Shown one piece after another: positions 49,526 through 54,975 of a stretch of DNA of 64,000 nucleotides. Position 1 is the stretch's first letter; every line of letters starts with the position of its first letter. Source of the DNA: Pseudomonadota bacterium (lineage in GTDB: Bacteria > Pseudomonadota > Gammaproteobacteria > Pseudomonadales > Moraxellaceae); contig JAJZHK010000003.1 of assembly GCA_021804565.1 (NCBI GenBank), positions 7,043 through 71,042 of the forward strand. The letters are read 5' to 3'. The notes below the pieces were generated by a model, which was not told the origin of the DNA, did no database searches, and saw only the letters and a program-made list of their open reading frames with translations. The translations under genes and the position numbers were made by a program.

Positions 49526-49915
49526 CTAGAACAGCCAGGACTTGGGATCTTCTACAGCCTGGGACTTATCCAGAGACTTCATGCCCTTGATGCATCGGAC
49601 CGAGAGCCAGACTACCCACAGCAGCCATATAAAGTAGCCGATCAAGACGATGGACAAAAGCACGATAAAGGGAAAAAATATAAGCCCTATCCAGAAGGTG
49701 CGGATCTGAAACTCGAAATGTGTCTGCAGCCAGTCCGGACTATCGGATTTGTGCACATAGGCGAGCACCACACCGACAATTCCGGCCACACCGGTAACAA
49801 TCCCCAAAAGATAAAGAATATACACCAACTTGGCCTTGGCTGCGCTGCCGCTTTTGTCCTCACGACTCACCACATCAGCATCTTGTGAAAATGAATTATT
49901 CATAAAAATATCCAA
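49526..49915 (-). CDS. Small integral membrane protein (three or four TM segments; DUF4870-like by pattern)
   Basis: 129 aa with hydrophobic helices (LVYILYLLGIVTGVAGIVGVVLAYV, TFWIGLIFFPFIVLLSIVLIGYFIWLLWVVWL). Its G+C content is intermediate between the core and the island. The family name is from memory only. Confidence 0.55.
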   Translation of the reverse strand: MDIFMNNSFSQDADVVSREDKSGSAAKAKLVYILYLLGIVTGVAGIVGVVLAYVHKSDSPDWLQTHFEFQIRTFWIGLIFFPFIVLLSIVLIGYFIWLLWVVWLSVRCIKGMKSLDKSQAVEDPKSWLF

Positions 49916-50229: not shown

Positions 50230-52620
50230 CTAAGTCAGAATAGAAACAAATTCGCCAAGAACTCTTAAATTTTTTGCTTGATCTTCTGTTAGTGCCATGA
50301 CCTTATATCCAAGCGCACTGGTTTTCGGACGCAACACAATATTCGAGGAATAGAAGTTATAATCTTCGGCATTAACCTGCTCTCTATGATACTCCCTCAC
50401 CGCATAATGCCCGCCTTGTTCAACATCGATAATATCTCGATATTGTACCAGCACAATCTTCCCTTCGCATGATTCTCCAGAGCCAGATTTAAAAAGGCAC
50501 CATGAACCATTGGGAATACGTTTATTCATGGATTCGCCAAGAACTTGCGCAACAAAATACCCCTCGGCCATGCGGATATGACCTGGCAATTCTACCCAAT
50601 CAAAATCACCCGTCGCCAAGTATTCACTGAAGTCAGCCGTGGTTATTCTCAGATCATAAACAGGAACAGCATTGTCAAAGGGCCGTACATCTTGCCTGGG
50701 TAAAATACGCAGATTTAAATCAGGATACCTCTCTTGCAGAGTCATTTCATGAGATTTTTGGGTCTGCGCAAGCAGTTTCGAAAAATACGCATTGGTCTCC
50801 TGGTCTGTGCAAAAAATATAGCAACCTTTTTGTCCTCGCGTCATGAGTGCTCGATAGGTATTTTTAATAATTTCATCAATGACTACGGCGCTTTCTTCAG
50901 GATTTTCTTTCAACATCTTTTTGTAACCCTTGATGGTTTTATCTCGGCCATCGCGACTGCCCGCATCAGTCACAACCTGACCATGGCGAACGACCAGATC
51001 AGGACCAATAATGACGCCAACATAATCCACCTCCAGTCCTTGGCAGGTATGAATGCAGCCAATTTCACGCACTGACTCCGGCGAGATGATCCAGAGGCTC
51101 CCATCAGTTGATAGATTCCATTGCGCCTCAAAGCCATGCTCAGGAATTCTGATATCCATTGCATATCTGTCTTTCTTGCTTACCCACTTCCAGCAATATC
51201 CAGCTACCAGTCGAGCTTTATTGTTGATGGCATTTTTTCTGAATATTTCCTCCCGCAATTTAACCGGAGAATCGAATACCCTGAAATCATAATCAATGTT
51301 CTCTAGCGTCGAGTTGGCCGTCTCACGTATCTGTAGCGCGGCATCCAGCCATGCCAGGTAGCCATCAGAGCCATTACAGCGAAACTGCGATCTTAACTCC
51401 ATGCGATGAAGATTAGCATCCAGTTTATTAGACCAAAATTGAATTTCATCAAGAGAACCGACATCATTTAAAGTGACACGCTGCCTTTCATCAAGAAAAA
51501 AAACAGCAAGCTTTGATGCATTGATAATTTCTTTGATCTGGTTTTCACCATAATTGCCGTACAACCCTGACTTCTCATTGAGTCTGTGTGCCTCATCTAC
51601 AATAAGTGCATCAAAAAAGTCAGGAACCGTACCGATATAAGAGCCAGAGCCCTTGAACATATTATTTATTTTTGTTTTAGCCAGCGTTCCGGTCAGCTTT
51701 GCAGCAAATACTGCACGTGGTGCAGCATTCTTGGAAACATACTGTGTGGTCATTTCTCGCCTGGTCAGCTCAACCAACAAGTTGATGGCTACTACAGATT
51801 TTCCTGTACCCGGACCACCTTCGACAATCAAAACTTGTTTTCGACCTTTCTGCGCCTTATGCGCCAGATCAATAGCCGTCTCGTAAACCAGTTTCTGATC
51901 ATCGATCATCAGGAACTCCTGTTGACCGCTCAGCATAGCAGTAAGGCTATCAGCCAGCCCTTTGGAGGGTTTTATTCGGCCATGCTCGATACGGTACATG
52001 ATATTGTCGCTATCACCGTACTTGACATGTTTCTTAAGAAATTTAGACAGCTTTCTAGCATCTGAGGAAATAAAAACAGGCGCCTTACTGGTGTGCGCAG
52101 CATAGAAAGGATCATTAACCGCAGAGTCCACAGAAAGATTGTGCAGGTAGGCACAGGGCATGAGCCTTATGTCTTCATGACGGACTGTTTCATTATAATC
52201 TTCTATCAGGGCTGCATAAGTCCAGGCCTGATATGAAGGATGACTTGTTTCCCTTTCAGAACCAGCTAAAAAGGTGAGCACAACGCCATCCTTATGAGTT
52301 CTTTTTACTTCACTCCATTGCTTGAGTTCGATAATAATAGCGGTATCATGCCTGCTTTCATCCTTACCTGTCAGGATAAAATCGATGCGCTTGCTGGTTA
52401 GTGGCAAAACGTACTCAATAGAAACACCAGAGTCTTCAGGAATATCGGGATCAACCAGCACCTTAAACATGTACTGCATGGAGTTTTTCCATGAAAGCAC
52501 TTCATTTTTAGATGGGCGCTTGAATAATTTCCTTTCAAACTCAGAGAGAATGATGCTTTCTATGGCATTCATGCCGACATCTTCAATAAACTTTCCCTTG
52601 CTACCACTGTATACCAGCAT
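50230..52620 (-). CDS. Fusion protein: PD-(D/E)xK nuclease-like N-terminus + DUF2075/Schlafen-type P-loop ATPase (SF1 helicase-like) + C-terminal S24 LexA/UmuD-like domain
   Basis: Track ORF 50230..52626 starts at a TTG; the ATG at 52620 (MLVYSGSKGKFIEDV) lies 2 nt after the upstream stop. The N-terminus reads RIDFILTG..AIIIELKQW (D..E-x-K). ATPase motifs: Walker A VEGGPGTGKSVVAINLL, Walker B ALIVDEAHRL, AGYCWKW, and IHTCQGLEVDYVGVIIG. The last 148 aa align by eye to the LexA C-terminal domain (VPVYDLRITTADF / YFVAQVLGESMNKRIPNGSWCLF / GKIVLVQ / YAVREY / IVLRP / LRVLGEFVSIL). Confidence 0.85.
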   Translation of the reverse strand: MLVYSGSKGKFIEDVGMNAIESIILSEFERKLFKRPSKNEVLSWKNSMQYMFKVLVDPDIPEDSGVSIEYVLPLTSKRIDFILTGKDESRHDTAIIIELKQWSEVKRTHKDGVVLTFLAGSERETSHPSYQAWTYAALIEDYNETVRHEDIRLMPCAYLHNLSVDSAVNDPFYAAHTSKAPVFISSDARKLSKFLKKHVKYGDSDNIMYRIEHGRIKPSKGLADSLTAMLSGQQEFLMIDDQKLVYETAIDLAHKAQKGRKQVLIVEGGPGTGKSVVAINLLVELTRREMTTQYVSKNAAPRAVFAAKLTGTLAKTKINNMFKGSGSYIGTVPDFFDALIVDEAHRLNEKSGLYGNYGENQIKEIINASKLAVFFLDERQRVTLNDVGSLDEIQFWSNKLDANLHRMELRSQFRCNGSDGYLAWLDAALQIRETANSTLENIDYDFRVFDSPVKLREEIFRKNAINNKARLVAGYCWKWVSKKDRYAMDIRIPEHGFEAQWNLSTDGSLWIISPESVREIGCIHTCQGLEVDYVGVIIGPDLVVRHGQVVTDAGSRDGRDKTIKGYKKMLKENPEESAVVIDEIIKNTYRALMTRGQKGCYIFCTDQETNAYFSKLLAQTQKSHEMTLQERYPDLNLRILPRQDVRPFDNAVPVYDLRITTADFSEYLATGDFDWVELPGHIRMAEGYFVAQVLGESMNKRIPNGSWCLFKSGSGESCEGKIVLVQYRDIIDVEQGGHYAVREYHREQVNAEDYNFYSSNIVLRPKTSALGYKVMALTEDQAKNLRVLGEFVSILT

Positions 52621-52622
52621 AA

Positions 52623-52970
52623 TCAATATTCCGTGTATTTTTTTGAGCTGCCCCTTACCTTGTCTTCTGGGTATTTAGACTCATTTATTTTAATTTTTCT
52701 TGTCGCTGCCTCGAGCAGGTCAACATCCATCTGATCTGCCAGGCGCAGCAAATAAAGAAAAACATCTGCCATTTCCTCTACCGCAGCCTTACGTTGCTCC
52801 TGCGTCAGATGCCTTGACTGCTCCTCAGTGAGCCACTGAAATACCTCCAGCAGTTCGCCTGCTTCACCCGCCAAAGCCATAGACAAGTTTTTCGGGGAAT
52901 GAAATTGGCCCCAATCACGTGCCAGTGCGAATTTTCGAAGATTTTCTTTGATTTCATTGAGACAGTTCAT
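52623..52970 (-). CDS. MazG-like all-alpha nucleoside triphosphate pyrophosphohydrolase, DCTPP1 (dCTP pyrophosphatase)-like
   Basis: 115 aa. FALARDWGQFHSPKNLSMALAGEAGELLEVFQW..EEMADVFLYLLRLADQMDVDL..NESKYP..RGSSKKYTEY aligns by eye with human DCTPP1 (ERDWEQFHQPRNLLLALVGEVGELAELFQW..EELSDVLIYLVALAARCRVDL..NRRRYP..RSSSRKYTEL). The metal-binding E-x2-E and E-x2-D motifs are present. Confidence 0.85.
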   Translation of the reverse strand: MNCLNEIKENLRKFALARDWGQFHSPKNLSMALAGEAGELLEVFQWLTEEQSRHLTQEQRKAAVEEMADVFLYLLRLADQMDVDLLEAATRKIKINESKYPEDKVRGSSKKYTEY

Positions 52971-53343
52971 TGATTATGTCCATATCGCAGCAGATCATTC
53001 TTGTGCGGATGGAGTGTCTGGCCCTGCAACAAACCGCCAAACTCACAACCCACCCATGCCCAAGCTTCCCTTCATCACCCAATCCATATTTGCACACTTA
53101 ATCTATCAGCAAAAGTCATGCTGCAATCGCTGCAGAACATTTCCGGCAGAAAGCAGTTCTCATCAAGCGGTCATAGACACCCTGCAGAAGATGACTCTCG
53201 TCTTCTTGCGCTTAATATCGGCGTCAATCCATGAGCATACCATGATCCATAGATCTTCATAGCATCTCATACCCAGCATTGAGCAAGTCATGTCATAAAT
53301 AGCATGCCTGCATTTCGGATGAAAAGAGCACCCCTAAGCTAGC

Positions 53344-54060
53344 TCAGAGGCTATGCAGGGTGTCTGACCACCATAGCGCACACATTGCGATTTGGTGTGT
53401 GCGCTGACCCTTGTCTGATAAGCAGAGCGATCCATGCTCCAAGAGGCGCAGGAGTTCCATGAACACCTTGCCATTCAGTTTGCCTTCATGCACCATAAGT
53501 CGCTGCAAACCCTGAGCACTGATAGCAGACAACATCAAGCCCTCCGCTGGTGTCATTGCCACCGGAGTATTGTACGGTTGCCCCGGAACTCCATGCATAA
53601 CACGCAGAGCCCATGCCAGCTGCTCTGCCGTCTCGTTCTGCCAGACGCTCACCAGCTGAGCATCCCGTGGACCAACGCTATACGGCGACTTTTGAACCAT
53701 AGCCCCCATGATATGTATCAGCCGGCTGAGGAATGCGAGGGGGGTCAACTGCTTGCCAAATTTCATTGCGAGCTCTCTGCCGCCGCCCTGCTGACTTCAT
53801 CACCTAATTAAACTGTGTGGCACGAAGGACCCATCCTTCCGCATCTGTGCTAGCCCGCATATTCCTCTTCATTGCCCTTGGAGAGATACCCAGATAGAAA
53901 TACGCCTGCTCAGCCTCCTGAAGCAAAGGCTACCAACCACGTGGTGAGTGACCCGGCCTTTTTTATAATACCCGGTGACCGCATCAAGCGATCGGGCATC
54001 GAGATACCTGATGAAGCGTGTACTTTTGTAATCTGAACTGTGCAGATAGTGCTGAATCAT
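53344..54060 (-). pseudogene. Frame-disrupted remnant of a DDE (rve-like, IS3/IS481-type) transposase
   Basis: Two short minus-strand ORFs lie in different frames. ORF 53869..54060 contains LDAVTGYYKKGRV..FRRLSRRISIWVS, resembling the D-x-T-Y..D-x-x-SR-x-I-x-W region of rve integrase cores. ORF 53344..53766 begins with a ..LTPLAFLSRLIHIMGAMVQKS.. segment, resembling the region following HSD-x-G-x-QY. This is by-eye similarity only. Confidence 0.35.
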
Positions 54061-54884
54061 TACAGAGCACCATCATACCTGACATGCCTAATGCCAATTT
54101 TGTGGTTTTACTTTGTAAGACCCTAGTACGCACACTGTCTCAAAAGCGCCTCTGCGCTCAATAGCTACGGCATTGAAAGAGATTTTTGATGGGCTATTGG
54201 CTTTCCCGCCGGAAACCAGGGCCTTGGCCATGCCAAGAATAGGCACACCAACAAGTGCAATGGACACGGAAGGATGAGCTCCAAGCCATGCACTTAGAAC
54301 CTAGCTTATTGTGACAATCACAGACACAGCTGCTCCGGCATACCGACCGTGCTTGGTAATGTGATGGATTTCCAGGACAGTAAGAATGTTTGATTCAAAC
54401 ACACTCTCTTCAGAGGCTAAGCGGTGGGCTTGCTCTTGCTCTGTCATACGGAAAATGTGCTCAGCACCATCAGGAATTATTTGCCCAAATCCAGCCTAGG
54501 CCTCTGCAGGAGGCAATGGTCCTGACCAATTATGGGGTCTTGTGGGGGACTTACTTGCCGGCGTTGAGCCGGCTCTTCGCGCGCGATGACACGACGAAAA
54601 TCTCCCCCTACCCGCTCCCAGAGAGCTGCTCATGGCATTTCTGTCGCTACGAGCGACCGAGGATAACTCTATCGTATTGGCAACTGGTGGACTGGAGAAC
54701 AGCAGACCAGGAGCGACTACCCCCTGCCAGCAGGCTGCCCAGTAAGCGCGATTTTTTCCATGAAAAAATCCCATCCTGCCCGCTCTAGTGACATTAATCC
54801 CAAAAGGTACAAGCGCCACGAATAATGAATTGCTCATTGGGCAAGGCGCCAAAGACTTTTTATGGAGCGCTTAGAAAGAACAAA

Positions 54885-54975
54885 TGGCGGAGAGGGTGGG
54901 ATTTGAACCCACGGTAGGGGAAACCCCTACTTCGGATTTCGAGTCCGACCCGTTCAGCCGCTCCGGCACCTCTCC
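54885..54975 (-). tRNA. tRNA-Ser (anticodon CGA)
   Basis: The reverse complement is GGAGAGGTGCCGGAGCGGCTGAACGGGTCGGACTCGAAATCCGAAGTAGGGGTTTCCCCTACCGTGGGTTCAAATCCCACCCTCTCCGCCA. It folds into a cloverleaf with a 7-bp acceptor stem, anticodon loop CT-CGA-AA, a long variable arm (class II), T-loop GGTTCAAATCC, and an encoded CCA. Confidence 0.93.

Follow-up and report, generated by a model that had tools for sequence, protein, structure and literature searches.

What becomes of an enzyme with a self-cleaving domain once that domain has lost the residues needed for cleavage? This question is raised by a fusion gene on the minus strand of a 64,000-nucleotide stretch of DNA (hereafter the window, meaning the whole stretch analysed) from a bacterium of the Moraxellaceae (assembly GCA_021804565.1, contig JAJZHK010000003.1, positions 7,043 to 71,042). 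The gene encodes a putative nuclease-like N-terminal domain, a DUF2075 helicase domain and a C-terminal tail of the S24 type found in LexA, CI and UmuD. Self-cleavage of S24 domains is the textbook conversion of the damage signal of RecA bound to single-stranded DNA (ssDNA) into a response, and to our knowledge it has been described in repressors and UmuD but not in immune enzymes. The tail of this enzyme family is probably self-cleaving, and in the window lineage it has probably become an uncleavable, retained pseudo-protease module on an enzyme that is otherwise under selection. What is new here is that the machinery of cleavage has apparently been taken apart while the rest of the enzyme is intact and under selection. 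Literature searches combining DUF2075 with MazG, DUF2075 with S24 and S24 with anti-phage function found no description of the fusion in the library searched, nor any paper on an S24 tail of nuclease-helicases or restriction enzymes.

Fold and catalytic residues of the tail

The open reading frame (ORF) enclosing the fusion gene spans 50230..52626 on the minus strand, and its final 148 codons form the domain under study. An in-frame TTG at 52626, upstream of the ATG, would extend the protein to 798 aa; the database form (P0001), 796 residues long, begins at the ATG at 52620. Pfam family PF00717 (Peptidase_S24) was matched at E ≤ 0.01 by all 21 aligned tails scanned, the window's included (best E 2.5e-10), with the window copy scoring 22.8 bits, below the 23.3-bit gathering cut-off. 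Nothing relevant was returned when PDB sequences were searched with the single tail sequence, and a 21-sequence tail profile reached LexA at E = 0.01 only. Settling the fold took fold comparison and hhalign. Structure prediction had been proposed as a check in the initial annotation, and it agreed with an S24 identity: the AlphaFold2 model of the tail has a predicted local distance difference test (pLDDT) score of 72.6, and when it was compared with the PDB by Foldseek, the top 13 matches were all to lambda CI, LexA or UmuD, each with probability 1.00 (best E = 1.2e-4). As modelled, the tail domain is a true S24 fold. Within the model (50233-50703), pLDDT drops below 50 at residues 23-32 and 92-98, which correspond to the segment just past the degenerate cleavage site and the loop preceding the A-V-R strand; the cause may be mobility around the cleavage site, as seen in LexA, or just a weak alignment signal.

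With hhalign, a profile built from 21 diverse tails was compared with E. coli LexA, in the sequence of the K-12 record. This placed the T-T-A of the window protein on LexA A83-A84-G85, its Ser on S119 and its A-V-R on T154-V155-K156, and lambda CI aligns likewise around its own A-G site. The initial annotation, working by eye, had identified the GESM Ser as the equivalent of the LexA nucleophile, an Arg (codon agg of Y-A-V-R-E-Y, 50395-50397 on the minus strand) in place of the general-base Lys, and R-I-T-T-A-D-F as the strand carrying the scissile site. All three assignments were borne out by the minus-strand reading and by hhalign. The tail family thus shares the (V/I)-A-A-G site, G-x-S-M and T-x-K of the S24 family (MEROPS; Pfam PF00717) with LexA, CI and UmuD, position for position. 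In those proteins the domain belongs to a repressor or a polymerase subunit, whereas here it is the tail of a 796-aa enzyme, and the tail subtype has conserved blocks of its own (RIPNGSWCLF, GGSRxGK and Y-x-S-E-K) that LexA does not have. The window copy differs from LexA, CI and UmuD in that its site, Lys and Thr have been replaced, which puts it outside the catalytic definition of S24.

In LexA, the Ser119-Lys156 dyad cuts between A84 and G85, and structural studies use the K156A substitution to prevent the cut (PMC9926225). The S119A protein is unable to self-cleave (PMC4980697), and replacement of the cleavage-site Gly with Asp gives the standard uncleavable form (PMC11787620). The changes in the window tail fall into classes equivalent to those of the uncleavable S119A, K156A and G85D proteins (G91D in P. 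aeruginosa), namely P1', the general base and the neighbouring Thr. The LexA mutants are laboratory point mutants of a repressor, whereas the window tail carries eleven natural substitutions in the tail of an enzyme and keeps its Ser. The loss of the Gly, the P1 Ala, the Lys and the Thr supports a non-cleaving tail that is predicted to be catalytically dead, activity being unlikely because the site has been lost as well as the Lys.

The tail-region search returned 388 homologues, and 118 tails were aligned. Among the 120 matches listed of the 388, nearly all are proteins of about 796 aa with the same architecture. The family consensus from the 118 tails reads ...VPVYDLK(I/V)AAGDFS...GESMN...GGSRxGK...Y-T-V-K-x-Y-x-S-E-K, with the A-A-G columns occupied by the expected residue in 116, 117 and 116 tails respectively, the Ser in 118, the Thr in 116 and the Lys in 117. 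The window protein is alone in having T-T-A at the A-A-G columns and alone in having Arg at the Lys column. The closest whole-genome relative, from another family in the same order and 76% identical, carries KVAAGDFS, GESMN and YTVKEYHSEK. The loss had been presented, by implication, as a property of S24-fused DUF2075 modules, with conservation of the Lys-to-Arg change in the clade as a check; the alignment contradicts the generalisation, with Lys in 117 and A-A-G in 116-117 of the 118 tails and the Arg in a single one, the window copy. By these columns the DUF2075-S24 family is a predicted canonical self-cleaver and the window copy a derived, lineage-specific exception.

The wider tail subtype gives a similar picture: across 150 representatives drawn from a 1.84-billion-protein library, Lys occupies the general-base column in 140 and Arg in 3. 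Two of the three Lys-to-Arg tails (P0179 and P0210) have lost the Ser too, and for this reason the substitution, where present, suggests inactivation. P0179 (871 aa, with Helicase_C) combines the Arg with a Ser-to-Ala change and has no A-G site, P0210 combines it with Ser-to-Ala, and P0213 (1277 aa, with SNF2) has the Arg while its A-A-G and Ser stay. From the sequences, inactivation of the tail seems to have occurred repeatedly, and on different enzymes.

Position of the changes and selection on the protein

Near-invariant columns were defined as those at least 93% conserved among 108 full-length relatives, which gave 256 columns. The window protein differs at 14 of these. Eleven of the 46 such columns in the tail are changed, versus 3 of 208 in the N-terminal and helicase domains together (odds ratio 21, p = 5.6e-7), the helicase domain itself being changed at 1 of 125. 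The eleven tail changes (A660T, A661T, G662A, Q668L, G716E, R718C, H727Y, T740A, K742R, S746R and K748Q) form three groups, located in the cleavage-site strand, in the 'GGSR' loop with a nearby His, and in the Lys-bearing strand. At the same columns other lineages exhibit conservative V/I/L or R/K swaps, whereas the changes in the window lineage are radical.

Substitutions specific to the window branch were also counted relative to the two nearest relatives. In residues 1-650, 3 of 65 substitutions fall at conserved columns, compared with the 32% that an absence of constraint would predict (p = 7e-8), whereas in the tail 11 of 29 do so against an expectation of 31.5% (p = 0.43). All other lineages pooled place 5.6% of their tail substitutions at conserved columns, from which the window branch differs with p = 4.5e-7. 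The conserved-column pattern of the window tail is far beyond chance. A relative-rate test by domain detected no tail-specific rate increase (Fisher not significant in six of seven comparisons), and the whole window protein lies on a long branch, so the signal is which positions changed and not how many.

The ratio of nonsynonymous to synonymous substitution rates (dN/dS) for the tail is 0.15-0.17 in comparisons involving the window protein and 0.15 between two canonical relatives, and for residues 1-650 it is 0.06-0.08, these values being approximate with dS near saturation (1.0-1.3). At 35 of the 46 conserved tail positions, GESMN and RIPNGSWCLF among them, the window protein is unchanged. 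The branch amounts to about one synonymous substitution per site, over which nearly every position freed of constraint should have been replaced; because these 35 were kept, selection appears to act still on the fold of the tail and on some function of it. Judged from the alignment, only particular positions have been freed or pushed to change while the rest remains under selection. The tail fold, the helicase motor, the nuclease-like domain and the MazG-like partner encoded next to it (below) all stayed under purifying selection in the window lineage. The suggestion of a non-cleaving, retained module made in the initial annotation is therefore supported for the window copy, where the site, Lys and Thr are gone and dN/dS is ~0.15, and falls for the DUF2075-fusion family. 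The host has RecA, a canonical LexA (IGQVAAGLP, GDSMK, VTVKYL) and a canonical UmuD-like protein of 146 aa (AIAAGFP, GCSME, YTLKTL) encoded next to a UmuC-like gene, from which it follows that the SOS co-protease machinery is present and the predicted loss of cleavage limited to the DUF2075-fusion tail. On host contig 81 (1444-3147), the umuD-like gene is directly followed by the umuC-like gene for a Y-family polymerase.

In the proposed sequence of events, a cut at (I/V)-A-A|G in canonical relatives would separate a 661-residue enzyme (1-661) from a 135-residue tail (662-796). In the window lineage, replacement of A-A-G by T-T-A and of T-V-K by A-V-R, along with changes at six other near-invariant positions, would have dismantled the cleavage apparatus. 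The window protein would thereby be permanently tail-bearing and uncleavable, and its tail may be kept as a pseudo-protease for dimerisation, docking or autoregulation. Cleavage would then be a dispensable regulatory step that is not needed for the core function of the enzyme, because the enzyme stayed selected long after cleavage had been lost.

Several points weigh against this account, besides the near-saturated dS. All the changes lie on one long branch, and their order with respect to changes elsewhere is deduced from rates. LexA with the K156R change keeps only a slow, residual autodigestion when the pH is very high. The Ser nucleophile survives along with the entire block from GESMN to RIPNGSWCLF, and this retention could mean residual or trans activity and not a purely structural role. 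The N-terminal domain is a putative nuclease by motif and not by fold, and the direction of the switch that cleavage would operate is drawn solely from comparative logic.

Tail partners, rival explanations and the possible purpose of cleavage

A phmmer search with a 157-residue tail returned 1122 clusters (50% identity) at E ≤ 0.001. The tail-bearing proteins range from 103 to 1490 residues, and the tail is nearly always C-terminal. Pfam scans of 109 of these proteins identified DUF2075 helicases in 22. Other partners are DUF3427 helicases, GIY-YIG, SNF2, the MrfA Zn-binding domain and nSTAND3, and the restriction partners include XhoI, RE_endonuc, an MmeI/Eco57I-type enzyme and type I HsdR; helix-turn-helix families were each matched by only 2 of the 109. 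Examples of such fusions are P0188, P0171, P0207, P0255, P0173, P0155, P0213 and P0145, and in P0255, an HsdR protein, the module is N-terminal instead of C-terminal. The tail subtype has no members in the phage collection and is found in one plasmid record, a 1.8-Mb Halomonas replicon. Origin of the window tail from a prophage repressor was set aside on these findings.

It is scarcely credible that the odd residues are noise in a decaying pseudogene or an assembly artefact. The host genome is a draft of 91 contigs, and the protein, which occupies a long branch, exceeds its relatives in unique changes in each of its domains. However, three separate ENA metagenome assemblies contain an identical protein flanked by the same genes, and as these assemblies are independent the sequence is not an artefact. 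The 796 codons, a length common to all the genes compared, are open with zero indels relative to P0003, P0002 and P0008 (the last from Microbulbifer spongiae), dN/dS is low throughout (0.06-0.17), and the Walker A/B and D..ELK motifs are intact; the identical copies, the open frame and the low dN/dS led to the rejection of both the pseudogene and the artefact. It is also very unlikely that the tail still cleaves, in cis or in trans, with the Ser working alongside the Arg or another base at a non-canonical site, although the strict retention of Ser and GESMN, the purifying selection on the tail and the presence of Ala-Thr, Ala-Ser or Cys-Gly at the site in some tail-subtype relatives would fit residual activity. 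Three independent requirements, the A-G pair at P1/P1', the Lys and the Thr of T-x-K, were lost together, and the two other clear Lys-to-Arg tails, P0179 and P0210, are also without the Ser. The initial annotation had allowed for a different base or cleavage site, which finds no backing here: the lost residues are conserved across LexA, CI and UmuD, and neither a replacement Ala/Cys-Gly nor any alternative pair of a small residue with Gly is specific to the window copy.

A further explanation accepts the loss of cleavage and reverses its meaning. Activated RecA (RecA*) formed during infection would remove an autoinhibitory tail and free an active, possibly toxic nuclease-helicase, so that the window copy would be disarmed and locked off, and either kept for another reason or heading to loss. 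UmuD is activated by the same chemistry, phage replication yields ssDNA and RecA*, the tail with an intact site is conserved in 117 of 118 relatives, and the low-GC island and sporadic presence described below make the disarming of a toxic effector after transfer to a new host plausible. A locked-off effector should decay, yet residues 1-650 have 3 of 65 substitutions at conserved columns and a dN/dS of 0.06-0.08, and the MazG-like partner is intact. The same tail is also carried by ordinary restriction endonucleases, which do not depend on activation by infection, and an activating cut followed by disarmament in the window lineage is considered unlikely.

The uncleavable, selected window protein would fit better with cleavage that turns the enzyme off. 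In this model RecA* and the SOS response would trigger self-cleavage and leave an enzyme ending in ...L-K-(I/V)-A-A, an ...I-A-A end resembling the ...V-A-A of the LexA(1-84) ClpXP degron, and the window lineage would have disabled the switch. For LexA-like proteins, the passage of PMC5742171 that cites Neher et al. 2003 places ClpXP degrons beside the cleavage site and describes them as active only after autocleavage. A built-in restriction alleviation triggered by DNA damage has about an even chance of being correct, and activation by cleavage a lesser one. Whichever holds, the window protein would be a natural uncleavable variant with a tail kept for a non-catalytic role. The off-switch is favoured because the tail sits on ordinary restriction enzymes for which infection-triggered activation is not needed, and because the window-lineage enzyme remained under purifying selection long after cleavage was lost. 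Its outcome, the shutting down of immunity, would be that of known restriction alleviation, in which ClpXP degrades the HsdR subunit of EcoKI upon DNA damage, and some type I HsdR proteins bear the same tail subtype. EcoKI alleviation needs no self-cleaving domain, whereas the link proposed here is drawn from the domain fusions and the ...I-A-A end. More tentatively, the tail may be a portable SOS-responsive off-switch of DNA-targeting immune enzymes that acts through a ClpXP-type degron, with the window lineage alleviation-proof and its tail structural. This wider proposal is possible but doubtful; under it, the 11 changed positions would mark residues required solely for cleavage and its stimulation and the 35 retained ones a second, non-catalytic function.

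A natural uncleavable copy whose motor and nuclease-like domains remain selected would be the first comparative evidence on the purpose of cleavage in these enzymes, and it suggests that cleavage is regulatory and dispensable and not an obligatory activation step. The 11 changed and 35 retained conserved residues also provide a separation-of-function map usable for mutant design. If the off-switch is true, the SOS response would be tied directly to the control of restriction and anti-phage nucleases.

The fusion gene, its neighbours and likeness to defence systems

Coordinates of the fusion gene, its domains and motifs, and the adjacent features are listed in Table 1.

Table 1. Features of the fusion gene and its surroundings in the window
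Feature	Position	Strand	Remarks
Fusion gene, 796 aa	50233..52620	-	N-terminal nuclease-like domain, DUF2075/SLFN-g3 superfamily 1 (SF1) helicase and S24 tail
Fusion gene stop codon	50230-50232	-	
N-terminal domain, residues 1-250	51871..52620	-	Putative PD-(D/E)xK-type nuclease; invariant D80 ... E98-L-K100
DUF2075 / Schlafen-group-3 (SLFN-g3) helicase domain	50803..51840	-	Walker A GPGTGKS and Walker B DEAH intact
S24 tail (LexA/CI/UmuD fold), residues 651-796	50233..50670	-	Predicted catalytically dead; purifying selection persists
Degenerate cleavage site T-T-A (acc acg gct), within R-I-T-T-A-D-F	50635..50643	-	A-A-G in the family
Retained Ser codon (tcc), GESM of invariant G-E-S-M-N	50530..50532	-	Equivalent of the LexA S119 nucleophile
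A-V-R (gcg gtg agg)	50395..50403	-	T-V-K in the family; general base and partner Thr both gone
E-S-C (gaa tca tgc)	50467..50475	-	Near-invariant G-S-R of the 'GGSRxGK' loop in the family (G716E, R718C)
MazG-like gene (all-alpha NTP pyrophosphohydrolase), 115 aa	52623..52970	-	PF12643, E = 1.1e-14
tRNA-Ser(CGA)	54885..54975	-	Far edge of the low-GC island with the fusion and MazG-like genes

The helicase domain matches the full profile (1-354) of PF09848 (DUF2075/SLFN-g3) with E = 5.9e-103, over residues 263-608 of the 798-aa frame. The N-terminal domain is modelled by AlphaFold2 with a pLDDT of 89.4 and has the D80...E98-L-K100 motif that is invariant in the family. A Pfam scan gave no hit in this domain, and comparison with PDB folds gave no significant match, the best being EndoMS/NucS (E = 0.06, template-modelling score 0.22).

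Partial matches to three PADLOC hidden Markov models (HMMs) were identified: PDC-S41 (1.5e-15, residues 26-314; HMM positions 21-288 of 657), the Nhi protein of Staphylococcus epidermidis (1.5e-9; 198-331 of 470) and lactococcal AbiO (1.8e-8; 175-329 of 468), and each covers part of the protein only. The organisation of a nuclease with DUF2075 is that described as Nhi-like by Millman et al. 2022 (10.1101/2022.05.11.491447). Nhi and the Nhi-like proteins combine an N-terminal nuclease-type domain and a DUF2075 helicase in one polypeptide, as is predicted for the window protein, but by their descriptions they lack both an S24 tail and a MazG-like partner. The fusion protein is probably an Nhi-like nuclease-helicase and a candidate anti-phage defence enzyme, as far as its domains and motifs indicate.

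The MazG-like gene ends 2 nt ahead of the ATG of the fusion gene on the same strand. All nine loci that were examined, among them a variant with a GIY-YIG N-terminal domain, have a conserved MazG-like gene as the immediate upstream neighbour of the fusion gene. In the window the two genes sit between sbcCD and the tRNA-Ser(CGA) gene, and the G+C content is 0.42-0.47 over 49.75-53.25 kb compared with ~0.60 in the flanks and about 60% in the remainder of the genome. The fusion gene is present in 1 of 60 relatives searched, and it was not found in two genomes of the same genus and 34 others of the same family. In other genomes its neighbours encode Mrr-type and HNH nucleases, an AAA_13 ATPase, NERD, Fic and PIN proteins and transposases, with neighbours of restriction, abortive infection (Abi) and toxin-antitoxin type. 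No SOS box (CTGT-N8-ACAG, ≤1 mismatch) was found upstream of the operon, and matches in the window are fewer than chance expects; there is consequently no evidence for LexA control of operon transcription.

The region from the MazG-like gene to the tRNA-Ser gene (52971-54884, ~1.9 kb) contains no integrase. Its sole sizeable ORF (53344..53766, minus strand) encodes 140 aa without a Pfam match and is called in the three metagenome contigs. A minus-strand gene (49526-49915) of intermediate GC content, located between sbcD and the fusion gene, encodes a predicted membrane protein of 129 aa, which exhibits a weak DUF4870/MamF_MmsF match and occupies the same place in the three metagenome contigs.

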